A stretch of DNA of 64,000 nucleotides from Raillietiella orientalis (Eukaryota): the NCBI GenBank assembly GCA_036172245.1, contig JAYWIR010000039.1:248001-312000 (forward strand), written 5' to 3'. Made by a program: the position numbers and the translations under genes. Positions 717-52,179 of the stretch are shown here, one piece after another. The notes under the pieces were generated by a model that ran no database searches, was not told the origin of the DNA, and saw nothing but the letters and a program-made list of their open reading frames with translations. Position 1 is the first letter of the stretch; the number at the start of each line of letters is the position of its first letter.

Positions 717-2600
717 TTTTTTTCACCTGGTTACTCCGGGACATTTATTTGATAAAAAATAAACCAGTTGGGAACACCGCTGGTTCCCAACCGAAGACAA
801 CAAGAAATAAAGGGGAGGGTCTACCGGCACGCGGGCTGGGACAACAGAGAGTCCGGAACAAGGGAGGGACGACAACAAAAACAAACAAAATGGGTGAGAA
901 GGGCCAGGGATCTTTGGGTTCGCTCCGTATTCACCAGGATAAAAACGAAAAGCATCAAGAAAGTTACGGAGCGGATGTGGGTGAGGAATGTGCAAATAAT
1001 AAGAAGAAGACAGGGAGGGAGGGGAAATGGATCACCGGGTCCGCCGTTCCAAGCCATCCATCAACCGGCAGTGAATGCCGGTGATCTCCTTCGCTTCCTC
1101 TTTCAGGTGAGGCCATCTCGCAGCCTCCCTGATGTAGGTGACTGCCATCCTGATGACCTCCCTTCGCTGCGTGGTGATCTCTAGCATCTATCGGGTCCCA
1201 ACAATGACATGGATGCAACCCATGGCTGCTATCATTGCGCCTCGCTGGTACTGCACTGGCTGGCACGCGCGTTGCACTGGGGTCTCCCGTGCAGCGTGCG
1301 CCAGCACCATTGGACGAGGGGAAGCACATCGCCGAACTGTGCCAGGTATGGGGAGAAGGAGACATTCCCCCACCTCTTAGTTCAGTGCGTCGTCCTCCGG
1401 AACTTGTGGGAATGTTTCCCCGCGTCCTTTCCTCACCCCGCGGGCGATCCCAGAGACTCTTTGAGGCGCCTCTTCGTGCGGGACGCCATGACGCCCGCAG
1501 CCGCAATCGCAGCGCTGTGCTGTGTGTGCGGTGTCGTCGCGGCGAAGTGCGACGCCGAGGGTGGCCGAAGCGACGGGGGGACTGTCCTGCACGCCATCCG
1601 CTTCCTGCAGATAACTTCGAGGTGGCCCCACCTGGAATGGAAGAAGGAGGAGCTCGCCAGTATCCTTCAATGGATGCAGAGGCCTTAGCCACCACGAAAT
1701 GTGATCCCTTCCCTTCCCTCCAACTAATTTTTTTTTGTTAGTTTTTATTGTTTGTTATAGTTTGGTTCCTTTTTTTCTATTTTTGTTTCATTCCCTTTCC
1801 CCTTCGTGGACGTGATGGACCACCCCAGCTCCTATATTTCCTGTAGTAATAATTGCAATCGGTGAGCCTTTTGGCTCCATCGATTCCTTCAAGAGGAATA
1901 AACGCCCCGGCGCACCCGGATGTGAAATCACACGCCTGTCGAGAGGCCTCTCGGCGCGAAGATTCGCCGCAGCACGTTTTGGACGGTATCCTCCTGGTGC
2001 AGCAATGCTGCTGCTAGCCTCTGCTACAGTTCCTGGATGGCCCCGCTGTCCAAAAGCAGGTGCGGTGGGATCGACTACGCACCGACCCGCGCACCTGGCA
2101 TGGTGCGGGGATGCAACCTCTCCGGAAACTCGTTGCCGCCGCTCGTTGCACTCGTATCCCCAGTGGACGATGAGCAGAACGGCCCGCTTCCGGGAGAGGA
2201 GGAACAGCGAAATGTCCACACAATAGGGAGGGACCACAAGTTCTTCGGGAGCAACACTTGGAAGTTCTCTCCACGGAAGGAGTCGCATCGCCAAAGCACG
2301 CGGAGTGGCAGCATCCGCCAGCCCGCCCATCTTCCAGCCGCTGAGGAGTCTGTTTTTTCCGCGATGGTGCAGGTAGGTCTCGCCGGTAAGCTGCTATCAT
2401 CTCTTGTCCTGAGGGCAGGAAGCTGCTGGAAGTGCTCCGGTGTCGAGGGTGTTACCCGACAGCACCTTTGGAGTGCCAACGGCTGATGGCGCCCGGAAGG
2501 ATGCCGAGCATCCAGGAGCCCTTTCTCCTCTTCGTTGTGCGTGACCCAGGAGAACGTCAGTGTTCTTGGAGCTTCGTTCTGGCTCGACCCCGCGACGACT
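717..2600 (-). mobile_element. Degenerate non-LTR retrotransposon 3' portion, subfamily 2, split by the insertion at 1243-1926
   Basis: Minus-strand translations PEELVVPPYCVD..VLLIVHWGYECN (about 2140-2260), VLRRIFAPRGLSTG (about 1933-1980) and GAMIAAMGCIH..AARWPHLKEEAKEITGIHCR (about 1060-1240) align collinearly with ORF 31741-32715. Ends AATAAATGTCCCGGAGTAACCAGGTG plus A7 at 717-749. The 5' boundary is approximate. Confidence 0.8.
1243..1926 (+). mobile_element. 5'-truncated non-LTR retrotransposon, subfamily 1, nested antisense in a subfamily 2 copy
   Basis: ORF 1209-1688: LHWGLPC..HWTRG..PNCARYGEKETFPHLLVQC..LFVRDA..RWPHL. T-rich 3'UTR, terminus AATAAACGCCCCGGCGCACCCGGATGTGAA. Degenerate TSD ATCATTGCGCCT (1231-1242) / ATCACACGCCT (1927-1937). 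Confidence 0.85.
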
Positions 2601-8559: not shown

Positions 8560-9040
8560 TGACTCGCTGGGAGTGGAATTTAACCACCGGAGTCCTACCG
8601 GGAAAAGGATACAGTCCCCTTCGGGGTTGCTCCCTCCCGGTTGCAAAAGGGGAGCCGGTCCCCCCCCTCCTCGGGGACGGGAGTTCCTTCCATCGCGTAA
8701 CGTGCAACTCGTTGATACTCCTCTCGGGGGTCCCCTGCCCAGAGTGCTAGGAAGCGCGCAACTCCCTTCGGAGTTCTCTTCAGAGGAGCGGATCCTTTCC
8801 GGGTGACTCCGCCGGAGAGGACAAGGAAGAGGTTCATCCCTTCGGCGTTCCTCCTCCCAGGAGTGAGAGAGGAGAGGACTCCTTCCTCCGGAATCCTTCC
8901 TGGATTCGTAGGGTGGCCCCTTCCCGGGGTGATCCCCTAACCTGAAGAGTTGCTACACGCACCCTCGGGTGACGTGGGCAGCGTCAAAGCGCGTCGTGAG
9001 CCCTCCGCAAGGAGGTGGACAGTTCTTCAGCATTTGGCTA
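8560..9040 (+). mobile_element. UUCG-tetraloop-rich repeat plus start of a putative ORF1 (same family as 21730-22600, 53161-53900, 55390-56020)
   Basis: Shares GGAGCGGATCCTTTCCGGGT, CCTTCCTGGATTC and the EEL.HAPS.DV..VK coding motif with the other copies; CTTCGG occurs near 8619, 8766 and 8840. Confidence 0.65.
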
Positions 9041-10467: not shown

Positions 10468-10489
10468 ACACACACACACACACACACAC
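10468..10489. repeat. (CA)n microsatellite
   Basis: Direct observation. Confidence 0.9.
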
Positions 10490-12466: not shown

Positions 12467-12502
12467 TGTGTGTGTGTGTGTGTGTGTGTGTTTGTGTGTG
12501 TG
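12467..12502. repeat. (TG)n microsatellite, once interrupted
   Basis: Direct observation. Confidence 0.9.
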
Positions 12503-13391: not shown

Positions 13392-16300
13392 ATGGAGATC
13401 GTCGGAGAGTTCGAATACAACCCCAAGGATGTGCTGGGGAGTGGAGCCTTTGCGTTGGTTTACAAAGGAAGATACAAGGAAGTAGGGCCCTTTTTTTTTT
13501 TTTTTGTTCTGTTTTACGAAACAAAGGTCGGGCAATGATCAATCGAAATTTTTAGAATCACGAAAAGATTGTTGCTATCAAGTCCGTTGCCAAAAAAAAT
13601 TTGCAGAAGTCTCACAGCCCCCTTAGTAAAGAAATTAAGATCTTGAAGGTTAGTTTGTGGTTTGGGATGTAGTCATGCAATTGTACACTTAATGCAAACA
13701 GATGAATAAATGTATTTTTGACGATTTGCATTCTAAATACTGTTTTTGTTTTTTTTTACGTGTGGAGATTTAATGCAACTTTTTGGTGATTAAGAATTGT
13801 TCTGTGCATTCCATAATGAATCCATTTAATTTTCTAGGAGTTGACGAGCCTCCATCATGAAAATGTTGTGGCCCTTTTGGATTGCAAGGTATGTCAATTT
13901 GTAAAAAAAAAAAACACCAGTTAGCACATTCGAATCCTTTTATAAAATATAAACAGAAGCTTCCGATTTTCCTCTTGAAAAATGAGTTACATTCTGTACT
14001 GCTTTTGCTTTTGCAAATACGTTTAACGAAAGTTTTCTTTCAAAAAACGTTCACCATGTCTACATGGTAAAGATGCAAAAGAAAAAAAAGTCGAGTATAG
14101 TTCGAAATTTTAGCATTGGGCCTAAAGTCAGTGATGAAAAAGTTTTCCTTCCTCCTTAGTCATAATAGCATAGTTGATCTTATCACCAGTGGTTGATATC
14201 ATGATGATGATTCAAGTTTCTGTTCATGTTAGATTATGTGGCTTTTGTTTTTTCAGGAAACCATTCCCTGTGTGTTTCTTATCATGGAGGTAAGTACAGT
14301 ATGAGCAGATTGGTTCATTATTGTCTTGTTGGCAGTTTTGTAATGCTAAAGATTTGGCAGATTACCTTCATGGTGAGAAGTAGCTTTTTCTTTTGAATGT
14401 ATGGTTAACATTTGTTGTAGCAAAGGGGACACTGAGTGAAGATACCATTTGTTGCTTTACAAATCAGCTTGGTAAGTGAGGCTAAGCTTGAAACTATAAT
14501 GCTTTGTGATAGCTGGAGCCATGAAAGCACTTTATGCCAAAGGCATTGTGCACAGAGACTTGAAGCCACAAAATATTTTACTCAACTGCAAAGGTTGTTT
14601 TGAGTATCCCAATTATCCGGCTCCCAGGAATATCACTCTTAAAATTGGTATATTGCAATCAAGCAGTTAGCTCATGCTAGTGACAAAATATCTGTCTCCT
14701 TTAGCGGATTTTGGTTTTGCACGCTTCCTTCAAGCAGGAGCTATGGCAGCCACCTTGTGTGGATCACCTATGTATATGGTGAAGAAGTGTTTTCACTGTC
14801 AGAGCAGCTGATTTACTGCCATTTTATTAGGCTCCAGAAGTAATTCTTTCATTGGGATATGATGCTAAGGCAGATCTCTGGAGTTTAGGGACAATCCTAT
14901 TCCAATGCTTGGCTGGCAGGGTACCTTTCCAAGCTAGTACTCCACAAGGACTTCATCAGATTTATGAAAAACATACCAACCTTGTACCAAAGTGAGTTGC
15001 ATGAGCATCAAGCCTTCATTTCTGTCCAGAATTCCCGAGGGAACGTCATCTGAACTAAGTGATCTGCTGTTGCGCCTGCTGAAGCGTGTGTCACGAGAGA
15101 GGCTTGAGTTTGATGAATTTTTCGTTCACCCATTTCTGAAATGCGGAAAGAAATCATGTCCTGTTCCTGTACCACATCGTGGTCGCAGCACATCTTCTTC
15201 ACCAGATTCTCCTACCATTGGCGTAACTCCAATCTCTCTCAGTCCAGCAAGAGGGGATCATTACAAGCGCTGCATCTCCCCCTTCACAGGTCTGTGTGTG
15301 TTGGTGATACAAGTTGACTTAAGTGAGCTTCTCCTCTCAAGGTGATACCCCTCCTTCAGCAGGCAGTGATGGCCCACAGCAGGAAAAGTGCAAGATTAGT
15401 TTGTCTCCTCATGATGATGATGTTTCTGATGACTTTGTCATGATATCCTCACAGTTGGTCTTTGAAGACTCCGAGGTGGAAGTTCACAGGTATGAAAGCA
15501 TGGAATGGACAAGGTTTTTGATTGCCTTATACTGCACATAGCAACAAAAACAAGCATCTTCCCGAAGCAGCAAATATGAAGCCAACCAGACTTCCTGTCA
15601 TGGAACCCCAGCCATTAAATTCATTACACAAAGCAATTTGTCCAAAGGGAGGAAGCGGACGCCCAAAGAGTCGAATTGGAACCATTACTAAAGCAATGCC
15701 CAATTCTTCGGTCTTTGGTGACTTTGATATCTCGTCCCTGTCGCCACCTGCTATACAGTTTTCATCCAATCAAAATGTACCATCTTGGAGTCGCCGCCGA
15801 AGATCAAGCTCATCCTCTTGTGCGGCATCCCCACCTTATACTCTACAGACATTTGGAACACGTCCCATGTGGACATTCTTGAACAGTCCTCAGTGTAGCT
15901 CTCCACTAAGAAGATCTCCAAGCCGTTGGTTTCATTCCCCACCGTTTTCTCACCAGGTAGTAAAGTACTCTTCATGTACAGGTATGAATTCGTGTTTGTT
16001 CCAGTGTTGGGGTTCTCAAGGACGATTTTCTCTCGAAGGCGGTGCCGGATATCTCGGAGGGCGAGAACGCACCTTTTCAGATTTCACAACAGAACATTCT
16101 GGTTTCAGTGTGCATTGCCAGAGCCCTCCGCCGTTTTTTGAATGTTTGGGTCCAGTACTTGGTACCCGCGCGAGCCCTCCGCTGGATGCCGGTTTCCCGC
16201 TCGTTGCTCCAGATCTTCCAGAAGAAACTCTAATGGAACGTGAACACAACGAAACTTTGGCGAAGCTCCACTTCATCGGTGTGCTCGTGGATAGCGTGAT

Positions 16301-16978
16301 GGAGCTGGCGCGAAGTCGTGGGACACCGCTGGCGGCCTTGTTAGCCACTGGAGTCGATTCTCAGTATACTCCCGGGCAGGAAAGGGCCGAGCAGTTCGTC
16401 CTGTACCAGCGGGCGCTGCTCCTATTGGCTTCTGCGTTATGCCTAGCCAAAGATGAGTTCTCTGCTGGACGTTTGCATCCATCCGCCTCCGTCAAACGAG
16501 GTAACTTATGCTTGCGTTCACCCACCGCGTACATTCTCCCCCCCCCCCCCTCTTCTTATCCGTAGCCGTGAAGTCCCTGAATGATAAATACATCATGTGT
16601 TTGGGACCGTACCAGACGCTGGGCGATTCGGCGTTCATTCACCAAGTGCAGAAAGATGCTCGCCTGTGCAACATCTCGGCAGATCGCCTGCTCTTCGATT
16701 TCGCCCTGGAAACTTGCCGAAGAGCTGCGTTGGACGAACTCTCGGAGAAGTACACGGAATGCTGCAGACGTTACCAAGTCGCGCAGATCCTTCTGCACAG
16801 TTTGGCCCAGCAAGCGGTTCAGAAGGCGGACAAAGATTCCCTGTTGAAATGTAAGTTTCGCGTGATGCTTGCGAGCACCGTTCTGCAAAGGATACCCTCC
16901 TCAGACAAGGATGCTGTGGAGAAGAGACTTTTCCTCCTGCAAGGACAAGGATATGTGTATGCGTACGACACTTCATGA
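13392..16978 (+). CDS. Atg1: Serine/threonine kinase Atg1/ULK (unc-51-like), complete spliced gene, about 803-816 aa
   Basis: GT-AG exons joined in frame: 13392-13481, 13556-13648, 13838-13888, 14257-14289, 14336-14372, 14421-14471, 14513-14647, 14705-14778, 14831-14991, 15030-15289, 15342-15489, 15542-16500 (possible 39 nt intron 15982-16020), 16566-16850, 16905-16978(TGA); total 2451 nt. Translation: [113 protein letters not shown]-like DDFVMI, C-terminal [20 protein letters not shown]...YKDAVEKRL typical of ULK1/Atg1. Confidence 0.96.
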
Positions 16979-17164
16979 ATTTGTTTTCGATTTTCCCGCA
17001 TGCACTGGACGGCGATCTCAAGTTTTACGCAAAAGCGAACGTTGCAAGTCCACCGAGACAGTGATTACTTCGTCTTATTTCTAGTCTGATACGTTATGGG
17101 ATATTAAAATGTTTTATATAAATTTTTGAACAACCTGACTGTAATGATTCATTGTGATATGCAT

Positions 17165-21255: not shown

Positions 21256-22600
21256 TTCCACCCGGACACGCCGGGGCGTTTCTTGGAATTGAAAACAGAC
21301 TCGTCAATTGCTGTAGGATACGTGGTTCCTACCACACTCCGTTTGTCCACGGACCTGCCGGGTGGTCGGCGGTGCGCACACCGTCGGAGCTCTCCTCGGC
21401 AGTGGAGGGGGAGGGAAGAAAAGAAAAAGAAAAAGCAAATAGAAAAATAGATGAGAATCTTTGGGAGAGATCCCTGTCCGCTGGAGGGAGTCCTGTGCAT
21501 CCTTTCCATGGATGCCGTCTAGGTCCGTCCTGATGGCACCCAGGTGGGGCCATCTGGCCACCATCCGTTGGAAGCGGAAGTGCACACTCAATGATGTCCC
21601 TCTCGTTTCTTCCGCCGTCGGCTTCGCCCCAGGCCTCTACGATCCCGCGGGTGCAGCAAGGAGGAGCTGCTGGGGCTGTAGCTGGATGCAGGGCGTCCCG
21701 CACGAAGAGGAGCCGTAAGACTGTCCCCGAGGGTGCCAACATGGATCCAGAAGGTCGTTTCAAAAAGTTCCCATGGGACCAGAAGGCAACGCAGTACTTC
21801 AAGAACTGTCGTTCTTCTAGAGGCTCACGGAGGTCTTTAACGTTGTCCACGTCATTCGAGGGTGCGTGTGTTAACTCTTCGAGATAGGGGGTTCCTCGGA
21901 AGGGGGCACCACCATACGAATCCAGGAAGGGCTCCAGAGGAAGAAAGTCCGTTCCTCCCTTACCCTTGGGAGGAAACCCCGAAGGAAACCCCTCCACCCT
22001 GGTTGTCTCCGAAAAGAACCTCGAAAGGAATCTCCTTCCTTGTTCTCTCCGGAGGGACCCCCGGAGAGATCCGCTCCATTTTTCTTCTCCGAAGGGAACC
22101 CGGAAAGGATCCGCTCCTGGGATGCCTTCTCCGGAGGAAATTCCCGAAAGGGAACCGCTCCTGTTTACTCTTCCTCTAAAGAGAACACCGAAGGGACGCT
22201 CTCCGATTTCTCTCTGAAGGGCTCCTCCTCGAAGAAGGCAGCGCGCATCTGGTACTCTGGAGAGGCAACCCCCCCGAGGGGCGCATCACTCCCAGCTCCG
22301 TGACACACCTCTATCCTCACAACCGAGGGGGAACCCCGAAGGGCTCCCTGATGTCCTGGGAGGACCCCGGAAGGTCGACCCCCAACCCGGCTGGTCAACG
22401 GGGGCATACGGGGGTTTTAGAATTCCATCGGTGCCGCACCCGAGTAGGCCAGCCAGCGTCGTCCTGCGGGAGGAGGGAGGGGGTTCGAAACCCACGACGC
22501 ACCTCCCCATTTTTTCTGGCGTCGATCCTTCCCCCCCAGTGGGATTCGAACTCTCAACGCCAAGTGCCACGCGCGGAGAAGGCCGCAGCCGGGCGGCCGC
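21256..22600 (-). mobile_element. Internally deleted element: UUCG-rich 5' region and ORF1 start fused to a subfamily 1 3' end
   Basis: ORF 21329-21997 joins FLDSYGGAPFRGTPYLEELTHAPSNDVD to LFVRDALHPA..CCTRGIVEAW. Terminus AAGAAACGCCCCGGCGTGTCCGGGTGGAA (reverse complement of 21256-21284). Confidence 0.7.
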
Positions 22601-24249: not shown

Positions 24250-25192
24250 CCCGGAAACCGCGGCAGGTCGAAGGGCAGGCGTGGACGCATCTCCCCTGCC
24301 CGCCGCCGAAGTGCAGCGCGTGGCGGGCGCGTCCCTCCTTCGTCCCGTTCCACGCCTTGGGGCAGCGGACCCGCAGGAGGGCGGGCGACCGTGCCCCGAG
24401 GAGTGGGCGGACGCCGAGCCGCCCTCCCCAAGGGGAGCGCCGGGACCACAAAGGCCGCGGAGTTGGGCTGTGTGGGAGGAGTTGGGACCTCCTTTCGCGT
24501 GGCAGGAGCCGGCGAACCCACAGTCAGGTCGGTCCGGGAACTTTCGGACGCCGCAGCGCCAAGCGCTCGCCTCCAAACACCGCTCCGTCCTGGACGGTCC
24601 AGTGGCTCTGGTTGCTAGGGAACCTCCTCCCCCTAGCAACCAGCGCCTGCGGCGTCAGTGGGAGGAGAGGATCCGCTCGCTTGACCGCCAGTTCCTCCGA
24701 GGCGGGTGGCAGCCAGGGACAGCGGCCCTCTTGCGCTCCCGGAGGACTCCCGTCGGTGGCCCCATCCCGCGCTGCGCCATCCGAACAGCAGTCACGGGTC
24801 GCCTCCCGGTGGATCCGCGAACGCCCGCTTCACCCCACCTCACGAATCGGAGAGGGGACGAGGCGGGATGGCCACACACCTGTTCCGAAAACCGAGAGGA
24901 CGCCGCCCGGATCGCGGGGAGGTCGCGAGAAACACGGAAATGCGGTGACCTCTCGCTTGCTCTTTCCTCGCCCGTTTCCCGGAGGTGACCGACGTTTCCC
25001 CGCACCGCACGTGCCCGGATCCGTTCCCTGATTTTTGTGTCTTCCGTCGCCCGCCGCCGAGCGCGCTTTCCCCCTCTTTGTCGGCGACTTGCGAGTCATG
25101 GTTCCCCGGATCGCGCACCCTGAGGACACGCGGATGCCCGTCCCCGGCCTGCTTGGTTTCCCGGCGCGACCGGGTCCGGAGCAACGACGAAG
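24250..25192 (+). repeat. Dispersed GC-rich repeat; inverted copy at 44865-47134 interrupted by retrotransposons
   Basis: 24250-24752 matches the reverse complement of 46578-47134; 24969-25192 matches the reverse complement of 44865-45105. Confidence 0.88.
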
Positions 25193-27730: not shown

Positions 27731-29499
27731 TCCATATGGGTCCTCTACGCGAGGTGCTCGAGAAGAGCTTTCGTTGCTTTGGGAACGGATTCTGCCTGGA
27801 GCCGCAGCCGCCGCCTCCCTTTGCCACAAATCCCTGTGGACCAGTTCGGGCCTCCCTCCTTCGCGTCTCCTGTTGTCTTTGATGCCGTGTTCCTTTCTTC
27901 CGCTGTCTCTTCGTTCGGGCCCTTTTGCTCCTCACCCGGACTTTGGACCAACGAGTGACCTCTGAACGACGTACTCCTGGACACCTGCTGCTCGAAGCTC
28001 TGCGTTCACTACGGTTCTCCCTACGCCTTACCCGCCATCTCTGGAGACGTGCGTGCGGAACAGAATGCACCTGGACGATGATGCGCCACTCTTCGCATGG
28101 GAGAAGCACGCGGAGTGCGCAGTCGGTTGCGAGCGTTCCCTCGTCGTCCGAGGACCGGCGCGGTGCAAGACGGGCGATCGCGGATCCGGCGCGGCGTATT
28201 CCTGGTGGCGAAAGTCCTGCAAGACGTCGGGCTAGGCGCCAAGACTCCATCCACGCACGCATGCGCCGGGTCTCTTGCCGTCGACTTAAGGAGTTTCCTG
28301 GACAGTTTCGGGAAGGAAAGCGATGCGCCCGTCTGGGCGGCTGAAGAGAAACACCCTCTTTGCGCGGAGAAAAATCCTCGATGGGGTCGGGAAAAAGACT
28401 TCACTGGGTCCGCACCTCACCCAAAAAAACGGGGGTGGTAGCGGTGGTTCGAAGGAGGAGCATCCTCCCAGTTTGGCATCCGGAAACCGGAACGCTGGAT
28501 CGATCCGAGATGCGCGCCTATCACGAGACTGGAAACTGAAAGGCAGCGCACCTGCCGGGAAGTAAGGAATTCTGGGAAGAGGCACCTGTAACGGCGCCTC
28601 CGCAAGGAATGAAGATGAGTGCGACAGGTAGCGAACAGCGTGCGTTGGGTTTGGCGGTGCGGGAAGAGCAGCTCTGGGAAAACCCATCCAGGTTAAGCGA
28701 TCCTCGACGGGGGAAGGGAGGGGGTCAAGGAAGCCCAAGGAAAATCCTCCCACAGGAGGAGGCAGTCGCGGACGGACCGAGGGCATCATCGGGTCGGAAG
28801 CCACGGCAAGCGGACCGGGGATCGGGATGACCGAATAGGATGGCCTGGCCACCGAGGGTCCCACCGGCGACCGGCACCTGCTGTGGGGATCGAACCCACG
28901 TCAGATGGCTCCTACAGCCTCATCCTATTTGGCTGCGGGGCACCAGGAGGAAGGGCTGGTGCGAAGGTCCACGAGAAGGGTTCTGCGCTTGGAGAGGGGG
29001 ATAGCGAGTCGTCCTTTGCCTGCAGCGCTTCGGATAAGGAAAGGACCACCTGATTGATGGGGTTGGGGTCGCTCCCGCGCACATCCTGCCGGTGGCTGCC
29101 GGGGCGCACCTCGCCCTCTCTTCGCAGCAGCAGAGCCGCTCAGCGTGAGGACTCCCGGAGGGCGGCTGCCGAGGAACGCTGCCGCCGGGGGCCCAGGGGA
29201 GAGGAGAGATGCCGTCCGGTGGTCGGAAACGCTCTCCTGACGGGAATGCGCCCTCGTCCTCTCCGAGGGTCTACGACTGGCGAGGGGGGGCGGGTAGGTG
29301 GCGGGAGCTGCCGAGAGCGTTGTGCGCTCCGCGGTCATCGACGCGGCCGCGCCCTCGGCCTCCTCGTCGAGCAGGCCACCGGCAACGCGGGACTTGCGTC
29401 CTGAGTTGCATCCTAATCATACTTCATCAGGATCTTTGATAGAGTGTGATTATCACTTGCGTCCTACCTTGCGCTCCGAAGCCCTATCTGCCACTGCGG

Positions 29500-30638
29500 A
29501 TTGCAGCTTCGGAGGGCGGCCAAACTCGCGAAGACCAACCCAGGATGGATCTCCATCTTCACCACTAATGGTAGTGCCTGGCTTTAGGAAACCGTTCGCC
29601 CGTGGGCGAGGATCCACGAGCAACGCGCGGAACAGGTGCGAAGATTCCTGTTCGCGCGGCATAGCAACCGCACGCTCCGAGAGACCTTGGAGGATCCCCG
29701 AAAAAGCGCGTGGACAGGAGGAACTTCTCTTGCTGCGGCTTTGCCCTCCCTCAGGGAACATCTGGGCAGCGACATCGCGGCAACATGGGAGGTTTTCATG
29801 AAGATCTCCGGACAAGAGAAGATCGGGAAATGGAAAACGGGCCAGCTTACCAACGCTGCTATCCCGAGTACCACTCCACATGGACTCTTGCTCCGAGGCG
29901 AGCTGCTGGATGTTCCAGTGGAACACCTGAAGTGGCCCCCGATTCTGATGGACGCGTGCACCCTCCCCATGAAGTGGCAGCAGTCGGCGCTGTTGGAGCT
30001 GTTCTGGGGTCTCCCGTGCGACGCCCACCATCACCACTGGACGCAGAGGGTGTCGACCCCAATTGAGCGAGAATCCCTCCCCCACCTATTAGTGGATTGT
30101 ATTGCCCTCCGGTCCCTATGGGAACTCTTTGTCGCGGCCCTGGAAACCCCTGGAGGCAACCCCAGAGACGCTATACGATCCCTCTTCGTTCGAGATGCCC
30201 TCCCGCCAGCGACCTCGCTGGCAGCCCTGTGCTGCCTGCGCGGGATCGTCGCTGCATGGAGCAAGGCGACGGGAGGACCCAGCGATAGCGATGCCAGCGA
30301 ATACGCCGTCCGCTTCTTGAGGATGGCGACGTGATGGCCCCATCTGGAACTATTCAGGAAAAGCTTGCCAGCATCCTCCAGAGAATGTGACGGATCATCC
30401 CAGCAGACTGCGATCCCTTCCCGCGCCCTCCCAGTGCTTTTATTTATTTTTCATTTTCATTTTTCTTTTTGTTTATACCCCCCTCCCCTCTGCTGCCGAG
30501 GTGGAGCGCACTGGTCTGAGAACCGATGACCCGGCAGGCTTTGATCATCTAGCGCGTGTCTGGATCACTGGTCCAGCCATAGATGCTGTAAAATAATTTA
30601 TTCGCGAGAATAAACACCCCGGCGCGCCCGGGTGAGAA
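29500..30638 (+). mobile_element. 5'-truncated non-LTR retrotransposon, subfamily 1
   Basis: ORF 29636-30334 (GELLDVPVEHLKWPP..LPMKWQQ..FWGLPCD..HWT..ERESLPHLLVDC..GGNPRD..LFVRDA). T-rich UTR, terminus AATAAACACCCCGGCGCGCCCGGGTGAGAA. 5' boundary approximate; no TSD found. Confidence 0.85.
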
Positions 30639-31360: not shown

Positions 31361-31393
31361 AAATGCAGGTGCAAAAGAGCGGGAGCGAGAGAT

Positions 31394-32593
31394 TTCTCAC
31401 CCGGTCACGCCGGTGCGTTTATTTCATATATTATAAACAAAAACAATTATATAAAATAAACCAGCTGGCAACCCTGCTCCCAACCGACGACTGAACAAGG
31501 ATCAAGAGAAAATTCCTGGCACGCAGGCCAGAATAACACAGAACGGTGTGTGGGAACTGGGAACACAAACAAACAAAAACAAAAGAAAAAAAAATCAATG
31601 GGGGACGCCGGGACAAGGGTCTTTGGGATCGCTCTGGTAGGCACCGGGATAAAAGAAATGGCACCGGCAGTTTAGCAGAGCGAGCGGGGAAGGGGTATGG
31701 GTGGGCTACAGGTCGCAGTGGTCACCGGATTACGCCGTTCTCAAAAGTCTGTAAACCGGCGATGGATGCCGGCGATGTCCTCTTTCACCTCGTCACGAAG
31801 ATGAGGCCACCTTGCAGCCTTCTCCATGGATTCAGCTGCAAACAGGTGAGCCTCCCTTCGCTCCGCTGACAACTCCAGGGCATAGCAGGTCTTCACGATG
31901 GCGCGAATGCAACACATGGTTGCGACAATCGCGCCAACCGAAAATCCATTCCTGCTGAAGAAGCGCCGCAGCACATCAATGGCAGTGCCTCCCTGCGGCA
32001 GGATGGCTGAAATCAGCCTTTGCCACAGTTCACAGAGGTCACCGCAGTCCAGCAAGAGGTGCGGAAAAGACTCGATCTCTCCGCACCTCAAACAGTTTGG
32101 CGGAGCAGCTCCCCCGGAAACGATGCTTCGCTGCCGATTACAGTGGAATCCCCAGTGTAAAAAGAGCAGCACATCTTGTTTCCACTTTAAGGGGAACACG
32201 GAGCTGTCCAAACAAACGGGGGGGACCACTATCTCTTCGGGGGGTACACTTAAATGTTCGCTCCACCGAAGCAGGCCCTTCGCCCGATTACGAGGAGTGG
32301 CAGTTTCCACCAGCTCCTTTGTCGTCCAGCAGCCGAGGAGCTTACTGACTCCCTCTATTGAGCAGGAGAACTCCCATTTCGCCGGTAGGCAACTGTCGTT
32401 GCTTGCCCTGAGGGCACACAGCGCTGCGGCGAGTGGTGTGGCGGCCAGACGATCCGACTTCTTCTTGTCCTGCATGACTTCGTCCATTGGATGACTGAGG
32501 AGTAGTCGCAGGCGTCGAAGATCTTCCGGACGCGCTCCTTCGGAAGCTGCCCACGATGAAAAAGATTCCTGCCGCCATGCATTAATGTTCATT
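31394..32593 (-). mobile_element. 5'-truncated non-LTR retrotransposon, subfamily 2, with an uninterrupted ORF2 C-terminal frame
   Basis: Open frame to stop at 31741 containing CLRCGEIESFPHLLLDC (C-x2-C-x7-H-x4-C, 32044-32094, zf-RVT-like). Terminus AATAAACGCACCGGCGTGACCGGGTGAGAA. TSD GAGCGAGAGAT (31383-31393) / GGGCGAGAGAT (32594-32604). Confidence 0.88.
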
Positions 32594-35500
32594 GGGCGAG
32601 AGATGGAGGCAGGTGGAGGAGGGGAAGGGACGGGGGAAATTCTTCTGTGGTCCCCTCCCCCGCCCTCCGCGCTACAGGCCGAGTGGATTGTCCTCCCTCC
32701 GCTTTCACCCTTCATCTCCTATAGTGGTTTCTTCCCTCGAGCGATCTCTGCTGAGGACTCTCTGGCAGTCCAGATTTAACCCGAAGGAGGAATTTCGGGG
32801 CATCCTGGAAAGTTCGGGAAAACGGGAATGACGCAAAGCGGCTCCTTCGGCGAAGCGCGGGAGACGTTGCCAGCACGAGCGCGTGGCGGGTATTTCGGGA
32901 CTCCCGGCCACCGACCGAGGCGGCGGCCGCGAACTGCGCGCACCCGCCGCTGCACGGGGCGCCTGTCGCGGCGTGATCGGGCCAGCCAGGAAGGCGGCCG
33001 GTTCTATGTTGCCGGGCGCGCAGACGCCAAGGGGTACTATGGGGTTGCGAAAGGGGCGGTTGCAGGGAAGGGCGGCTGAGGATCCCGCCCTGGAGAAGTT
33101 GATCCCGGCAGGGGGGTGGGAGTGGGGGCCGGAAGGAGCCGAGACAATGAACGTGTCGGTCCGCGGTAGCGGGGTGGGAGGCGGAGGAGCTGCTGCCGGC
33201 CGGGGAGCGCAGCGTGGTGCACGTGGGCGCGCTCTGGCAGGACTCCTCCTGCTGTCCTCGAGCAGGATGAGGTTGGGGCCGGGAGAGGTGCGAAGAAATC
33301 CCAGGCGCGAATGTCCACGCACGCCCTACGGCTCTAGGTCGCTCATCGGTTTCGGGTTCGAATTGCGTCAACTGGTGGCGCTGAGTCCGGGAGCGCGGGC
33401 GAAAGGGCAGCGCTGGGCTGGCGACGAGGAGGAACCGGCGCGACTCCTGGCCTCTGACCGATCCCGTGGGTGGAGGCCAGGAGACGGGAATCTATCAGTG
33501 TGGTTTCCCGGGAGTGAAGGGGGGAGGAGAGAGACCGGAAGCTCCCTCTTCCGGAAACCGCGCTCCTTTGAGGCCGCTGCCTTCGACCACCTCCTCGGAG
33601 AGGCAGTCGTGCTATTCTCCGGAAGGAGCGAAGACGCAGCTTCCTCCTCTCCCGCTCAGAGGACGGCAGGGGGGGGGGGGTACGCGAGCTCGCCGCAGGC
33701 GGAGGCGGCGGCTCTAATGAGTCACCCCGTCGCGCCGCCACTTCTCGGTGGTGGAGTCACGGCAGGGGGTGGTCACCCCCTTCGCCTTCCCTCCCCCTCC
33801 TCCCAGGCTGGAGAAGTCTCTGACGTGCCTCCGGGATCTGCGCCTCCGCGCGTGTGCTCTTCCGCCGTGAGTCTCCCCAGGAGCCTCATACCGCCCGGGG
33901 CTGCACGAACGCCCCCGGTCTTTCCGGCCAGGAAGACCTCGTCCCAGGGGATTACGAGCACCTTCCCCGAGTTCCTCCCCTTCCTGCTCTTCTCCGATCC
34001 GGGAACGCGCGGATTCGCGGGGAGCAGCCTCCCCTCCCGCGTCCTGCGTCCTCTCGGGCGGGATCGACTCCCAGAACGCCTCGGGCGGCTTCCGGATCAC
34101 CATCGGCGACGACCTCCCGCCGGAGGTGACAAAGGGGTGGGTGGAAGAGGTCATCGCCGCTTCGCTGCAGGGTGCTCCCTTGCGGCCGGGGTCACGCGTG
34201 GTCTCCTCGAGCGGAGGGGCGCCGGGTTTCACGCGCAGGAGCAGAGGTCGCCGGTCGATAGTAGGCTACTGGTGACCTGGGAATCTCGTAAGCCCCGAGA
34301 GCGACTCGAGGAACCTGCGGGATGCCGGATCTATTGCAGCGCAGCGCCGGGAGAGACTCCCTCGCTCCTCCCCTCACTTTTCTCCCAGAAGCCCCAGTCC
34401 TCATCCACAAAGGTGGGTGCCCCGTCGCCAAAGGGATCCCGACTGGCCCTGAGCTCGCTGCTCCTGGTCAAAGGTCGAGCTGCCCGCGTCTCTGTGGTCG
34501 TCAGGGGTGGCAGGCGATCCCCATCAGCGAAGAGGGGACCCCGGGCTCTCGGAGGCCCTGAGACAGCCGCAGGCAGTCACCCCGTCTCCACCGGATGCCT
34601 GATAGACCGCGCGTCCACCTCGCGTTCTCCGGCCCGAGGCGCACCGCGGCGGGCTCCCCTGGCGTCAACCCGGACGCAGGATGGCCGCAGGATAGCCGCC
34701 GCCCTCTGCAGCAGCTGGTCCTCTAGAGTTGGAGCGCCCTTCCCCCAGCGGTCAGGCTTCTCGCTTTCCCCAGGAGGTCGCACGTGGGGGGGGAAAGGGT
34801 CGCTTCCCCTTTGCAACCACGCGAAGAACCTCTTCCGGGGCGTTCGTCCTCTTTCCCTTCGCCTCAGGAGGGCGGGTGGGCGGGAAGTCTGCTCCTCCCC
34901 TCCTCGGCCGCCTTTTACCGCCGCGGTTCCTCCCCCTCCTCCCGCCCTTCTCCCCCTTTCCGCTCTCCATCCTGGGCACCCGCCGATCACGCGGGTGTCA
35001 CGCTCTCTCGAGGCGTCTGCAGCGGCGGCGGCGGCGGCGTGGGGAGCTGGAGACACGGATACGTGGCTGTTGCCATGACAGCGGGGCAAATCCTTGGGCT
35101 CCGGCGCAGGGCGAGAGCGCCTTCCCATCGGCCGCTGGCTCAGCTACGTCTCTCCGGGGAGAGCGGCGGATGGGAGGCGCGCGCTGTTGTCGCCCTTCCT
35201 CCGCCCTCCGGCTGCGCCGTCTCCGCCGCCCGGGGACAAAGGTCGTTGCCGACGGGGCCTCCGCGGCGCGTCTCCCCGCGCGCAGACTGCGCACGTCGCC
35301 GGCAAGCGGCCCTTCGCGCGCGCGCTCGGTGACCTACTTCCAGCCCCCCCTCTCTTCCTTCTCCCCCTCCTACTGGAGACGGCGGCGGCGCGGCGAGTCC
35401 GAGCGCGGGGATCTTCTCGTGGCGGCGCGAGAAGCTGGCCGGGGGACCACGAGAGCGCCCGCGCCTTGTGAGAGCAGTTACCCCGGCAATGGGAGCTGGC

Positions 35501-40369: not shown

Positions 40370-40720
40370 TGGGCTTCGGAAGACCTCCATGGTGGTCACA
40401 GCAACAGTTGGGAAGGGATCATCTGCGTGGACCTCTACAGGTAACGTGCAGCGGCAGAATGAGGCGGTGGATATGGTGGACTCTTTCTCATACTCGCAGG
40501 GCACCAGTCCGAAACGGGGAATTAGTGCCGCTTCCCTGACGTTTCCCCCTCCACGCGGACGCTTCGTGCACGGGAAGTTCCTCGGAGAAAGTGCTGGCGG
40601 ATTCCAGAGAAGGCACACATATACTTCGGCCGAGTGTCCAGGAAACCCAAGAGGTCCAGCATCTCCAGCAAGGATTACCGCCTTCACGCCGACAGCAAGC
40701 ACTGCAGCTTCACAGCTTGG
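40370..40720 (-). pseudogene. Degenerate non-LTR reverse transcriptase fragment (RT motifs 4-5)
   Basis: Minus strand gives GKRQGSGTNSP (cf. GVRQGCPLSP) in one frame and, about 100 nt downstream in another frame, VEVHADD (cf. YADD). Confidence 0.45.
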
Positions 40721-42283: not shown

Positions 42284-43933
42284 AGGAGGAGTAAGGGAGG
42301 GAGGGAGGAGGAGGAGGAGGCCTTCAGACGCACCCAACCTAGAAGCGGAAGGAGGCGCCGGACATGGGAGCGCAGAACCGCGTTCGACCTCGCCTCAGAA
42401 ACGACGATACCCGGGCACGGACTCGGCCATGACCCCCGGAGGCCAGTCAGGAACGGGTGCTTTCCCAGGAGGGGCCGAAGCTGGCAGTGGCGAAGACGAG
42501 GCCGCGTTCGTGAGGGGCGACGCAAGGAGTTCTTCGGAGCGCACGGGACATCGGTCAGCGGTTGCCATGGCGCGCGCGGCGGCTGGCGTTCCTCGAGAGG
42601 TGGGCTGATGGATACCCGTTGTGGCCTGCTCGCCAGCCTATCCCTCTCTCTCTCTCTCTCTCACTTCCCCCCGCAATTCTCGCCCGCTTCCCCGTTTCCA
42701 CGGCGACCGGGCGTCGTCGCCGTAACCTCTTTGCTGGAGTCCGAGTGCCCAGAGTTCCTCGCGGGTGGCGTGCCCGGATACCTGTCGCGCGGTAACGGGG
42801 GAAGTTGGCTCGGCTTCCCGAGGAAGCCACGCGCGCACGGCTCCCGTCGCCTCGTAGCGCGCTTTAGCCGTCTTCCCGCAAGCAACTCAACGAGGGAAGA
42901 CTGCAGGAAGGCAAACAAAAAAAAAAAGGAAAGCAGGAGGGAGGAGGAAGAGATTTGGCGCACATGGGCGCGCGGGCGAGGCAGGGGTGCCTCCTGGTGT
43001 CAGCAGGTGCGCGGTGACGACGGTGGCTGCGCCAGAGCGCCTGCAGGAGAACGATGGCGTTTTTCCTTCCCGAGGAAAACACAGGAGGAGGGGGAGTGAA
43101 AGAAGGAAGGAGGTCGGCGACCTGTGGGGGCGCGATCTCTGAGGGCGCTTACGCATCCCTGAGAATCGCACGCCTCCGTCTCCTTGACGACTCCGGAAAC
43201 GCCCGTTCGCTGACGCAGGAGCCGGCGAGGGAAGAGCCAGCTACTGCGCCGCTGAGCCGTCGTCGCCCGGGATCGCTTCCGCCGCGTGCGCAGGGACTCA
43301 GAGTTCAAGGTCGAACGTGGCAGGGACGGGGGAACGGCAGCGCGGTGGAAGCCCGCGCGGACCTGCGCGGCGCTCCTCAACCTTCTCGGAGCGGCTGCTT
43401 CCCGAAGGAGGATTGGGAAGGCACGCTCGGCGCCCGCCTCCTCTGCGCACGCGCGTGGGCAGCTCGATCGGTAGTGCAGGACGAAGGAGCCCAGTGCCGC
43501 TGCCACACGGTCGCCGTGGAAACGGGGAAGCGGGCGAGAATTGCGGGGGGAAGTGAGAGAGAGAGAGAGAGAGGGATAGGCTGGCGAGCAGGCCACAACG
43601 GGTATCCATCAGCCCACCTCTCGAGGAACGCCAGCCGCCGCGCGCGCCATGGCAACCGCTGACCGATGTCCCGTGCGCTCCGAAGAACTCCTTGCGTCGC
43701 CCCTCACGAACGCGGCCTCGTCTTCGCCACTGCCAGCTTCGGCCCCTCCTGGGAAAGCACCCGTTCCTGACTGGCCTCCGGGGGTCATGGCCGAGTCCGT
43801 GCCCGGGTATCGTCGTTTCTGAGGCGAGGTCGAACGCGGTTCTGCGCTCCCATGTCCGGCGCCTCCTTCCGCTTCTAGGTTGGGTGCGTCTGAAGGCCTC
43901 CTCCTCCTCCTCCCTCCCTCCCTTGCTCCTCCT
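42284..43933. repeat. Long inverted repeat: 426 bp arms (42284-42709, 43508-43933) around a 798 bp spacer
   Basis: The arms are reverse complements, with only one mismatch noticed (AGTAAG vs AGCAAG). Identical peptides appear in ORFs 42095+ and 44062-. Confidence 0.93.
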
Positions 43934-45105: not shown

Positions 45106-46580
45106 TTGCCACCCGGATACGCCAGGACGTTTATTCAAACTCTTCATATAGTCATGACAATACGTGGTACAAGGCCCCACTAACGGCCAACATTTAGCAG
45201 GACCTGCCGGGACGCAGACCAGCGTGACTCTCTTCGGCAGTGGAAGGGGATGGGAAAAAACAAAAAGGAAAATAAAACAAACAATACAAAAAAAAAAAAA
45301 GAGTTTGGAGGGTCGGGAAGGGATCACTGACCACTAAGAGGAGGGTCCATCCTTTGCAGGATGCCCTCGATGTCCTCCTTCAGTCTACCCAGCTGGTGCC
45401 ATCCGGTAGCTCTCTGCAGGAAGCGAACAGCATATGGGATGACGTCCGTTACGATAGAAACTTCATCTTCGGCTTCACTCCACGCTGCCACAATCCCTCG
45501 GATGCAGCAAAGTGCTTCCAGGGCTGAGGCTGGCTGCAGGGCGTCCCGCACGAAGAGAAGGCTGTAAACGTCTCTGGGGTTGCCGCCAACCGGTATCCCA
45601 AGGGTCGTCCCGAAACGTTCCCATAGGGGCCGGAGGGCAGGACAGTCAACTATCAGGTGGGGGAGGGATTCCCGTTCCCCGCACCTGACACAGTTCGATT
45701 CACTCTCCCCCGTGTCCAGTGGAAGCGACGCGCATTGCAGGATAGACCCCAATGCAACAGCAGGAGCTCCGTTTCCTGCCACTTTAGGGGGAGGATCCTC
45801 GTTTCCTTCAACACTGGGGGCCACATCAGGTCATCCGTCGAGATGTCCAGCAGCTCTCCCAGGGAGGAATACCCGGGCCCTCTCCCTGAAGTGGCAGGAG
45901 TCGGCGTTTCTGGTGCTGCATTGGGGACTCCCCAGAAACTCCCGCCGCTGGACGAGGGGGACTGTGGACCCGAACTGTGTCAGGTGCAGGGAACGGGAAT
46001 CCCTCGCGCACCTGCTTCTTGACTGTGTTGCCCTCCGGCACCTGTAGTTGCGTTTCGCAACGGCCCTTGGAGCATCCATGAACAATCCCAGAGACGTATT
46101 GAAGCGCCTCTTTGTGCGTGACGCTCTTTAGCCTTCCGCAGCCCTTGCAGCCTACGAGGGATTGTGGCGGGTTGGAGCAAGCCACTGGTGGACCTAACGA
46201 TAGGGACGCCATCTGCTCCGCCCTTCACTTCCTGAGGACGGCAGTCGGATGGTCCCGTCTGGGAAAGTATGCGGACTGAACTTGCCAGCATCCTGGAAAG
46301 GATGTAGAGGACGACCACAGGGCGGAACGTGATCCCTTCCCTGATTCCTCCCTGCTTTTGTAAATAGTGTTTTTTTGTTTTTATTTGTCCCTTCCCCTTC
46401 CGCTGCCGAGTCGAACTCGTCGGCCTGCGCGCTGTCTACTCGGCAAGTTCAGAATTTTTATCGGACGCTGTAGGGGGGCAATGGTCCTACAGATGCTTGT
46501 TTGTTTTTTTTTTACAAAAATAAACGCCCCGGTGCACCCGGGTGTGAAAGCAGCTCTCCCCATTTCGTAAGGCCTCGCGG
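45106..46580 (-). mobile_element. 5'-truncated subfamily 1 retrotransposon, split by the insertion at 45861-46548
   Basis: RGLTKWGELL (about 46550-46578) continues across the insertion as GELLDISTDDLMWPP..LPLKWQ..LHWG..NCVRCGERESLPHLIVDC..LFVRDA (ORF 45324-45824). Terminus AATAAACGTCCTGGCGTATCCGGGTGGCAA at 45106-45135. Confidence 0.85.
45861..46548 (+). mobile_element. 5'-truncated subfamily 1 retrotransposon nested antisense, perfect 12 bp TSD
   Basis: LSLKWQESAFLVLHWGLP..PNCVRCRERESLAHLLLDC. Terminus AATAAACGCCCCGGTGCACCCGGGTGTGAA. AGCAGCTCTCCC at 45849-45860 and 46549-46560. Confidence 0.9.
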
Positions 46581-47369
46581 AAGGACTCTCTGGGAGTGCA
46601 AGGGCAGCAGCCCCTGGCCGCCACCCGCCTCGGAAGAACTGGAGGTCTCGCGAGCGGATCCGCTCGCCCACTGACGTCTCAGGCGCTGGTTGCTAGGGGA
46701 AGAGGTTCTCTGAGCAACCAGCGCCACCGGACCGTCCAGAACGAAGCGGTGGGAACCACCTCTTCATCCAGGGAAATGCCGAGGTCGCCCGCCCTCCGGA
46801 GCGGTCTTTGGAGGAGAGCGCTTGGCGCTGCGGCGTCCGAAAGTTCCCGGACCGACCTGACTGTGGGTTCGCCGGCTCCTGCCACGCGAAAGGAGGTCCC
46901 AACTCCTCCCACACAGCCCAACTCCGCGGCCTTTGTGGTCCCGGCGCTCCCCTTGGGGAGGGCGGCTCGGCGTCCGCCCACTCCTCGGGGCACGGTCGCC
47001 CGCCCTCCTGCGGGTCCGCTGCCCCAAGGCGTGGAACGGGACGAAGGAGGGACGCGCCCGCCACGCGCTGCACTTCGGCGGCGGGCAGGGGAGATGCGTC
47101 CACGCCTGCCCTTCGACCTGCCGCGGTTTCCGGGAGGGCGGGAGGCGCTGCTCTCTGGTAGCAGGGAAACCCTGTTGCCGCGTATTGCTACTGGAGGAGG
47201 AGCAGCGAAGCGTCCGGTAGGATGATGGACGTCACTACTCCATCCAGGAGGATGTCAAGAGTCTCTGCCTCCTGCTTCCCCTGGAGCCGTCCGACTGAAT
47301 TTCTCTGGGGAAGCTCACCAGACTTAGGGAAAGGATGAGGTTGGTGTGAGGGAGAGAGAAGGAGAGAAA

Positions 47370-47780
47370 GGTGATCTGCACTGTGCAGGAATTAGGAGAC
47401 TTTCGTTTCCAGGAGATAAGGAGGCAGCAAAGAAATGAGGACCGTGAACTTTTGACTGGATCTGTCTGTAGTTTCCGATCTTATCGCTAGAGGGCAGGCT
47501 AGGCATCAACTGCAGTGCTGGGTGGGAAGGCGAACGATTGCTTTCCACTCCCTCTCTTCTGGGGAGACACATTTTCGCCTTACTCCAAATATCCCACAGT
47601 GTTCATGGGTAAATGAAAATAGAACTATTAGTAAGGTGGATCTCGGAAGAGACTCGTGCGGGAAACAACTGAGATTGGTTGTAGAAAGTTGTTTCCGAAG
47701 ATGGCGCTAGATGGATTGTAGTACTCGACGGGCCATTTCGTCGCTTCCCCAGGATCAAGCATCAGCCAAATCCGAAATTG
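47370..47780 (-). pseudogene. Degenerate non-LTR reverse transcriptase fragment (N-terminal motifs 0-2)
   Basis: Frameshifted PG..WPVEYY (cf. PGPDGxPxEyY), then LQLMPSLPSSDKIGNYRQI (cf. LIPK...NYRPI), then SLLIPAQ (cf. LIxxxQxGF), in the expected order. Confidence 0.6.
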
Positions 47781-50700: not shown

Positions 50701-51065
50701 GAGCTTCCTGGACCCCTGCCTCCTGAGGTCAACGAGTTGGCGATGGTCTCCAGGAACGTTCACAACCGGCCAACCTTGTCCCCCGCGGTCGGCCGCCCGT
50801 CTGGGAGGGGAGACAGAAAAGGAGAGTTTCGCTGCTCCCGGAGTGTCCGTCCCAGGCTGGCAGAGCTCGGAAGGCACTTTGGTTTCTCCAGCGGTCGGCT
50901 GGGCAGCGGGACTTCCCTCACTGCCGGGCGTCTCATCGTGGAACGAACGCGCGCAGCCCCCCCGAGGCAAGCCGGCATCGACGTCATGCCTGGGGTGTTG
51001 CGCAAGAAAGGAGCCATTGACGATGAAGACGACGGCGCAATCTCGAGTGACCCCCAACCAAACGA

Positions 51066-52179
51066 AGTGTGATTGGGGGTGACTTCCGACGGGTGGCCAA
51101 GCTCACAAGTATCTACAGCTGGATCTTCTGCTGGCCTGCGAACAGTAGTGCCTGGCTGCAGGGAATCGTTCGCGCATGGACAAAGAACAACGAAACGACA
51201 CCGGAGAAGCGACAGCGACTGCTGCACTCCTTTTACAACAACCGCTCTCTGCAGGACGTCATCGTGCAGTCCACCACGTGGGGGGCGCAAACAACCTTCC
51301 TAGCCATGGCATTGTCCTCCCTCAGGGAACACCTGGGCAGTAACCAGTCGGATAAATGGGAGGTCAGCTGCGAAATCTGTCAGAAGACGAGGGAACTAGG
51401 TGGTTGGAACACGGGCCAGCTCACAGACGCTAAGACTGTAAGTACCTCACGAAGGAACTATTGCGCTGGGGTGAGCTGCTGGGAATCCTACAGGAGGACC
51501 TCGAGTGGCCCCCAGCCCTCTCCCTGGAGTGGCAGGAGTTGACACTTCTGCTGTTGGATTGGGACCTCCCATGCAACTCTCTCCAATCTCACTGGACCCG
51601 GGGGGCTGTGGACCCCAACTGTTTCAGATGCGGGAAACGGGAATCTCCCCACACCAGCCCGTACACTGTTGCCCTCTGACCTCTTTGGTTGCGTTACGCA
51701 ACGGCCCTTGGTGCACCGACGAACAACTCCAGGGACGTGAGCGATGCCCTTTCGCCTGCCGCATCCCCAGCAGCTCTTTGCTGCCTACTGCTCTTTGCTG
51801 GGAATAGTGGAGGCCTAGAGCTACGCGAGGGGAGGACAGCGCGACAGGGACGTCATCTGCTTTGCCCTGCGCTTCCTGCGGACGGCAGCCAGATGGCCCC
51901 ACCTGGGGCATACTCGGATGGACTTGCCGGAATCCTGGAAAGGATGCAGAGGACATCCTCCAGCAGACATGATCCTCCCAGAGTTTTTTTATTATTGATT
52001 TTTATTTATTTTTATTTTTGTTTGCTCCCTCCTCCTCCGCTGCCGAGGCGAACTTCGCCGGCCTGCATTCCGGTTACTCGGCAGGTTCCGAATATTTTCG
52101 GACAATGTAGGGCCGATGGCCCCACACATGTGTGTTTACTTTTTTTTATAATAACGTCCCGACGTGACCGGGTAATAAA
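51066..52179 (+). mobile_element. 5'-truncated subfamily 1 retrotransposon with 13 bp TSD
   Basis: Frameshifted ALSSLREHLGS..WNTGQLT, WGELLG..LEWPPALSLEWQ..HWTRGAVDPNCFRCGKRESPH. Terminus AATAACGTCCCGACGTGACCGGGTAATAAA. TSD CCCAACCAAACGA (51053-51065) / CCCAACCACACGA (52180-52192). Confidence 0.85.

Follow-up and report, generated by a model that had tools for sequence, protein, structure and literature searches.

How does a long interspersed nuclear element (LINE) mark the 3′ end of its RNA when its DNA copies carry hardly any poly(A)? The template choice of a LINE decides which other RNAs are copied along with it, including short interspersed nuclear elements (SINEs) and processed pseudogenes, and L1 is the textbook case of relaxed, poly(A)-guided copying. 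The question is raised by a family of LINE remnants in a 64,000-nucleotide (nt) stretch of the Raillietiella orientalis genome (assembly GCA_036172245.1, contig JAYWIR010000039.1, positions 248,001 to 312,000 of the forward strand), referred to below as the window and numbered from its first letter. The window has a G+C content of about 60% and contains no N. The explanation that we favor, at a little better than an even chance, is that the remnants represent one family, with two subfamilies, of endonuclease-type retrotransposon lacking long terminal repeats (a non-LTR retrotransposon) that is L1/Tx1-like, belongs to the stringent type, and has a hairpin as its 3′ end.

Eight truncated copies share one 3′ terminus

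A 33-nt module, AATAAA-N4-CCGG-N5-CCGG-GTGNGAA, forms the common 3′ terminus of eight 5′-truncated LINE copies (Table 1), and in every one of them the terminus comes after a C-terminal fragment of open reading frame 2 (ORF2), as located by tblastn with the longest fragments as queries. The pattern AATAAA-N4-CCGG-N5-CCGG, with up to two mismatches allowed, was matched eight times in the window where 0.46 matches were expected (100 shuffles, largest count 3). Seven of these are true module matches; no element precedes the match at 63142 on the plus strand. The remaining copy, which ends at 52179 (plus strand), is degenerate and was spotted by eye; a covariance model matched it with an E-value of 5e-6. 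This model, which was built from the eight ends themselves, placed the module at exactly eight ends when it was run over the whole window with its filters off (E-values 2e-9 to 5e-6), and the matches that come next (E-value 0.13) are partial, 16 nt in length, and lie in a duplicated segment of unrelated DNA. An earlier, sequence-only reading of this DNA had proposed the terminus at these eight 3′ ends, with loop sequences that we could confirm as listed, and had considered that the motif might be widespread without the element; in the window it never occurs without the element, because the covariance model matches the element ends only.

The distance from the hexamer to the end of the element is 24 nt in six of the eight copies, and 23 and 27 nt in the other two. 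The copies are about 0.6–1.2 kb long and begin at different 5′ positions. They fall into two protein subfamilies, A (two copies) and B (the others), that are about 32–35% identical to each other in protein sequence. All are old, with 72–77% DNA identity among them, frameshifts and CpG-type changes. The variable 5′ truncation, the common 3′ terminus and the differing target-site duplications (TSDs) described below identify the family as a non-LTR retrotransposon.

Target-site duplications place the end directly after a short tail

Four TSDs of 9–13 bp and one paralogous site put the end of the element 7–9 nt past the hairpin. The two subfamily A copies, e31394m and e717m, are flanked by perfect 9-bp TSDs, the upstream copies of which lie exactly where ORF2 homology starts; e46548p has a perfect TSD as well, and e1926p has a decayed one of about 11–13 bp at the split in e717m. 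The tails that follow the stem hold 2–6 A, the longest A-run being 6–7 in a single copy, and no A-rich remnant lies beyond them at the five fixed ends. The first base of all four TSDs is A; the base that precedes them is C in three cases and T in the fourth. Neither the poly(A) tail nor the T-rich nick site that are typical of L1 was found in these copies. That TSDs at four copies set the end after only a few A had been claimed before and is borne out here, with a fifth end added from a paralog. As the four TSDs differ in sequence, insertion is not site-specific, and a Tx1-style, site-specific mode was rejected.

The fifth end is that of e45106m, where homology to an inverted paralogous segment resumes right after ...CCGGGTGGCAA. 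The filled site has no TSD and lacks 224 bp of the paralog. The two inverted segments are 85–97% identical; one holds the nested LINE pair (1,482 bp) where the other holds the 224 bp of unrelated sequence, and this difference therefore points either to deletion or replacement of the target at insertion or to the gain of other DNA by the segment without the LINE pair.

Two further candidate duplications were rejected. The 10-mer at e21256m is a false TSD because both of its flanks lie in one degenerate short-period repeat with TTCGG/GGAG-like units, a kind of repeat that recurs elsewhere in the window (Table 1), and a 9-mer assigned to e30638p lies 3.2 kb upstream, outside any homology. No TSD was found for e30638p or e52179p.

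The terminal module is conserved between diverged subfamilies

When the last 330 nt of the copies were aligned, the mean pairwise identity was 73% in the terminal 33 columns and 20–51% in 11 of the 12 upstream bins of 33 columns, the outermost bin, which consists mostly of gaps, standing at 5%. Between the subfamilies the module is 72% identical, compared with 29% for the remaining 3′ region, so the earlier claim that both subfamilies share the module despite their differing 3′ untranslated regions (3′UTRs) holds. The conserved block has a sharp boundary at the hexamer. Departures from the column majority are few in the hexamer (2 of 46 cells) and the stem (5 of 80), and more frequent in the spacer (5 of 24), the loop (14 of 40) and the tail (9 of 47); the Fisher p of 1e-4 for stem against loop overstates independence because the copies are related. 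A terminal module that is so much better conserved than the remaining 3′ region usually marks a 3′ end on which the element's own enzyme depends, and the alignment suggests such a need here.

The terminus can pair, and its stem lacks covariation

The stem could pair in 36 of 40 cells as a 5-bp helix, and in 52 of 56 cells as a 7-bp helix from which a single C bulges out (CGC[C]CCGG-N5-CCGGGUG). The changes that this longer form accommodates include six that are one-sided and wobble-compatible. Pairing fell to 25–50% for the 7-bp version and to 20–68% for the 5-bp version when the partner strand was slid by 1–3 columns. The folding energy of the last 120 nt reaches z-scores of −2.6 and −3.3 in two copies.

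Several observations weigh against a stringent, hairpin-ended, L1/Tx1-like LINE, and most of them concern the helix. No stem pair is altered on both sides among the eight related copies, a set of low power for compensatory changes, and no measure of stem pairing stood above the shuffles in 500 of 500 trials. The CCGG cores are self-complementary and can pair alternatively with an upstream CYCGG segment; given five subfamily B ends, RNAalifold favored the pairing of this segment with the distant terminal CCGGGU, at an unfavorable covariation term (+2.24). In six of the eight copies the folding energy of the last 120 nt is ordinary (z-scores +0.2 to −1.6). The hairpin is thus best described as a conserved sequence that is able to pair, the stem of which may be conserved as sequence instead of structure. 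The sample consists of eight old, related and non-independent copies from one 64-kb window, and in that window, small as it is, the covariance model found no partner SINE with a shared tail. As to the protein, the Pfam zf-RVT profile matches two copies below threshold (E-values 0.006 and 0.014; 16–18 bits compared with a gathering cut-off of 27.5 bits), and Pfam scans that covered 190 of the window's 191 stop-to-stop frames with at least 140 amino acids (aa) detected no reverse transcriptase (RT) or endonuclease; an [FY]xDD motif is also lacking in all six reading frames of the window. The absence of these domains is uninformative about the full-length element, since every copy is 5′-truncated and the absence is expected.

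The sequence-only reading had inferred an L1-like lineage with a terminal RNA hairpin. A LINE family with a conserved, hairpin-capable terminal module and no poly(A) tails stands, but the helix is without covariation; the stem is kept and the loop varies by count, but the covariation that was proposed as a check on an RNA helix is missing among the eight copies, though the power to see it is low.

Three more possible hairpins were seen in the 3′UTR, within the last ~150 nt of each copy. One, CTGCCGAG...CTCGGCAG, occurs in subfamily B; another differs in sequence in every copy; the third, TTTATT...AATAAA, is an A/U hairpin whose 3′ arm is the hexamer and which adjoins the GC hairpin. We make no claim for these upstream hairpins, the z-scores of which are weak (+0.03 to −3.15) and for which the RNAalifold covariation term is +2.24.

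The ORF2 remnant and the clade of the element

The C-x2-C-x7-H-x4-C (CCHC) zinc finger that had been noted at the end of ORF2 is present and intact in three copies. A profile search of 1.84 billion protein representatives returned five matches, one of which, P0001 (87 aa), is a member of the family itself; in the other four the match is confined to the zinc finger and its surroundings, and three of these carry zf-RVT. P0007 (1,352 aa), a cluster mate, has endonuclease, RVT_1 and zf-RVT domains and about 130 aa after the finger, as does this family, and in hhalign the family profile aligned to it, at 94% probability, along 72 columns that surround the finger. In a protein atlas, the zf-RVT family set is common to 23 of the 30 nearest clusters, which come mostly from chordates. 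The zf-RVT evidence fits an L1/Tx1-like ORF2, and on such comparisons we regard membership of the L1 superclade as probable.

CCHC motifs after the RT are found in several LINE clades. The family could lie outside L1/Tx1, in some other endonuclease-type clade with a C-terminal CCHC in which defined ends other than poly(A) are the norm, and its ending would then be unremarkable. The lack of an RT in the window, the zf-RVT match below the Pfam cut-off, and the absence of the L1-typical poly(A) tail and T-rich target all leave room for such a placement. It is nevertheless unlikely in our judgment, considering (i) that three of the four profile matches besides P0001 carry zf-RVT, (ii) that P0007 combines the endonuclease, RVT_1 and zf-RVT architecture with the same stretch past the finger, and (iii) that the nearest atlas clusters, from chordates, are of the zf-RVT kind.

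Wider searches with the protein and the terminus added little. No longer homologous protein was matched by a 325-aa fragment used as the query, and a four-sequence profile found P0001 as the only near-length homologue. A scan of metagenome proteins gave 32 pattern matches and a peptide-pattern scan of viral contigs gave 26, none of them confirmed. At the DNA level, a scan of metagenome contigs with the terminus gave 41 loci, none after a hexamer and none with a tblastn match, which are chance matches; viral contigs gave 0 matches. A sequencing-run index listed a single DNA run, in which 0.05 of the sampled words occur, and no run of RNA. The AlphaFold model of the ORF2 C-terminus had a mean pLDDT (predicted local distance difference test) of 50, too poor for use, and Foldseek found no match to it in the PDB with an E-value of 0.001 or better.

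Alternative explanations: a 3′-end signal, module exchange or sequence recognition

The hexamer is the best-conserved part of the module, with 2 of 46 cells changed, and the 24 nt that separate it from the end are the canonical distance. This would suit a module that is only a signal for 3′-end formation, a hexamer with a fixed GC-rich spacer, in an element whose polyadenylated RNA was copied in the relaxed manner and whose tails shrank later. The lack of stem covariation, the 6–7 A retained by one copy and the age of the copies (72–77% DNA identity) also favor this explanation. We nevertheless consider it improbable. Eroded tails usually leave an A-rich remnant, whereas the flank follows right after GAA or A6 at the five fixed ends. 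Furthermore, a mere spacer needs neither 75 of 80 unchanged stem cells nor a GTG kept across subfamilies that are 29% identical elsewhere, and the T-rich target that annealing of poly(A) would call for is missing in front of the TSDs.

We give similarly little credence to a shared end that results from recent exchange of the module between the subfamilies, by recombination or template switching, or from recognition of CCGG-N5-CCGG by a sequence-specific protein in place of a selected helix: compensatory pairs number zero, the stem is invariant except for single-sided changes and the conserved block stops sharply at the hexamer, yet the blocks are not recent identical copies, since the loops differ between and within subfamilies, and most of the one-sided changes in spacer and stem are compatible with wobble pairing (six keep the pairing and four cells are unpaired). 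Sequence-specific recognition would still be a stringent 3′-end mechanism and would therefore alter the detail of the explanation, not its kind.

A model for the 3′ end of the element

In a stringent LINE with a hairpin end, the steps would most likely be as follows. The element would be transcribed by RNA polymerase II, and the AAUAAA hexamer would direct the cleavage of the RNA to a point about 24 nt downstream of it, the position at which the DNA copies terminate. The RNA would then terminate in a module made of AAUAAA, a short spacer, the GC hairpin CGC[C]CCGG-N5-CCGGGUG (5–7 bp with a 5-nt loop) and NGAA. The ORF2 protein may recognize the terminal hairpin together with the GUG tail (‘stringent’ recognition), and target-primed reverse transcription would start at the last one to three A, with the nicked target strand, ending in T, as the primer. 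As a consequence, little or no poly(A) would be copied. The folding of the RNA, its recognition by the protein and the polyadenylation state of the template are elements of this model that we infer.

A more specific version, which we put forward tentatively and at clearly less than an even chance, is that the family is an animal LINE of the L1/Tx1 lineage with stringent recognition, and that the hairpin, which lies between the hexamer and the cleavage site, makes reverse transcription begin where the 3′UTR meets the tail. If this is correct, the family would provide animal evidence for the proposal of a stringent ancestral L1 from which mammalian and plant L1s became relaxed in parallel.

Comparison with known LINE ends

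In mammalian L1s the poly(A) tails are long and the nick site is T-rich, in contrast to the 2–6 A found here and to TSDs preceded by C or T. The tails of stringent LINEs of the L2 clade consist of short tandem repeats, whereas here the tail is a single GTGNGAA. The family resembles mammalian L1 in having a CCHC motif close to the end of ORF2 and AATAAA close to the 3′ end, in being often truncated at the 5′ side, and in its TSDs and nested insertions. A stem-loop in the 3′UTR has been proposed for mammalian L1, and the 7-bp bulged form of the present hairpin resembles the LINE 3′ hairpin consensus given in the same source, with a 5–7 nt loop, an 8–10 bp stem and a bulge 4–6 bp from the loop (both according to the accessible part of PMC5135761).

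UnaL2, ZfL2-1 and ZfL2-2 are described as stringent-type LINEs of the L2 clade in the accessible parts of PMC4176376 and PMC1636434. As far as those parts go, their 3′-terminal stem-loop is recognized by their own ORF2 protein, and they share with the present copies the absence of a long poly(A) and a short defined tail after the hairpin; the family described here differs in that its ORF2 C-terminus carries a zf-RVT-type CCHC, and the function of the L2-clade stem-loop comes from assays, whereas here it is argued from sequence.

The concept of a stringent hairpin end is already in print for L1-clade elements (PMC3472496) and is seldom reported for L1-like elements. In the monocot L1-clade lineage around LINE1-1_ZM, a conserved 3′ hairpin was read as a sign of stringent RT recognition (Ohshima 2012, PMC3472496), and the suggestion in the sequence-only reading that such a lineage is possibly undescribed therefore overstates the case as regards the concept; literature searches found no paper describing the 33-nt module itself. 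The two lineages are alike in that the 3′ end is better conserved than the rest, over ~45–50 nt in the monocot elements with a divergence of 0.144 compared with 0.570 (PMC3472496), and with 73% compared with 20–51% identity here. However, the LINE1-1_ZM lineage has compensatory stem mutations and the partner SINEs ZmSINE2 and ZmSINE3 (PMC3472496), neither of which has a counterpart in our data, and its conserved bases (loop UCU, flank CGAG; PMC3472496) are unrelated to those of the present module. Nearly all plant L1s terminate in poly(A) (PMC3472496, Table 1), unlike the copies here, the host of which, by its ULK1-type gene and the atlas neighbors of the element's protein, looks like an animal. 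Green-algal L1-clade families likewise do without poly(A), eight of 15 ending in other repeats and five in none (PMC3472496, Table 1), but the host group differs and no such hairpin module appears in the main text of that paper.

According to a published model, L1 was stringent in its ancestral form (PMC3472496); a well-defined L1-like animal family that ends in a fixed hairpin and lacks an A-tail would serve well to test this model. Taken alone, the family adds one to the LINE families whose 3′ end is specific, which is the common state among LINEs. The compact 33-nt module is a candidate for retrotransposition assays.

The copies and their surroundings

The coordinates of the copies, their modules and duplications, and the other features of the window are collected in Table 1. 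Two of the eight copies are nested in copies of the same family, in opposite orientation and at different ORF2 positions, which is too few to judge a preference for self-targets. The 5′ starts of three copies, from both subfamilies, lie within ~30–90 bp around one ORF2 position, 1.13–1.2 kb from the 3′ end; this near-common start may reflect chance or a preferred truncation point. A ninth fragment of the family, with the ORF2 C-terminus and the start of the 3′UTR, has a terminal module that is lost or diverged.

Table 1 Copies of the LINE family and other features of the window
Feature	Position	Strand	Module	Pattern match	Tail	TSD	Remarks
e717m, subfamily A	718..2424	−	718–752	727–749	GTGAAAAAA	ACTTCCAGC at 2425–2433 and 709–717	5′-truncated ORF2 C-terminus and 3′UTR; split by nested e1926p
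e1926p, subfamily B	1244..1926	+	1894–1926	1897–1919	ATGTGAA	decayed, 1231–1243 and 1927–1940	nested in e717m, opposite orientation; approximate 5′ limit
e21256m, subfamily B	21256..21880	−	21256–21287	21262–21284			5′ limit uncertain; AAGAAA replaces AATAAA; CCHC region lost by internal deletion
e30638p, subfamily B	29498..30638	+	30606–30638	30609–30631	GTGAGAA		approximate 5′ limit
e31394m, subfamily A	31394..32595	−	31394–31426	31401–31423	GTGAGAA	ATCTCTCGC at 32596–32604 and 31385–31393	1,202 bp; open 282-aa ORF2 C-terminus including CCHC finger 32044–32094
e45106m, subfamily B	45106..46587	−	45106–45138	45113–45135	GTGGCAA		split by nested e46548p; CCHC 45642–45692; 3′ junction from paralogous segment starting at 24969
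e46548p, subfamily B	45861..46548	+	46516–46548	46519–46541	GTGTGAA	perfect, 12 bp, AGCAGCTCTCCC at 45849–45860 and 46549–46560	688 bp; nested in e45106m, opposite orientation; CCHC 45976–46026
e52179p, subfamily B	51051..52179	+	52148–52179		GTAATAAA		approximate 5′ limit; decayed module with 1-nt deletion in the hexamer and one stem pair lost
Ninth family fragment	53958..54720	+					tblastn match 53958–54525
Near-common 5′ starts	29498–29546, 32595, 51051–51120						three copies
Possible upstream 3′UTR hairpins (example)	46399–46548	+					last ~150 nt of a copy
Inverted paralogous segment	24217–25193	+					224 bp unrelated sequence at 24745–24968
Inverted paralogous segment	47166–44866	−					holds the nested LINE pair
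Degenerate short-period repeat	21822–22265, 8763–9002, 53495–53790, 55723–56028						TTCGG/GGAG-like units
ULK1/unc-51 (ATG1)-type kinase gene exons	14968–16975	+					kinase domain end, Ser/Pro-rich linker, MIT domains
Near-perfect inverted repeat	42284–42709 and 43933–43508						426-bp arms
Direct repeat	53161–53792 and 55390–56020						brackets the ninth fragment

The one recognizable gene in the window is of the ULK1 type, with a Pfam ATG1-like_MIT2 match (E-value 2e-11) and a match to the MIT region of human ULK1 (E-value 6e-8). Its exons lie in a stretch of 46–51% G+C, compared with ~60% for the window; an atlas search with the ULK-like fragment gave no usable match. A near-perfect inverted repeat elsewhere in the window is 99.8% identical over 426 bp, with ~800 bp between its arms. 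The direct repeat that brackets the ninth LINE fragment is 96% identical over ~630 bp; it may have arisen by local duplication or mark the ends of a different element.

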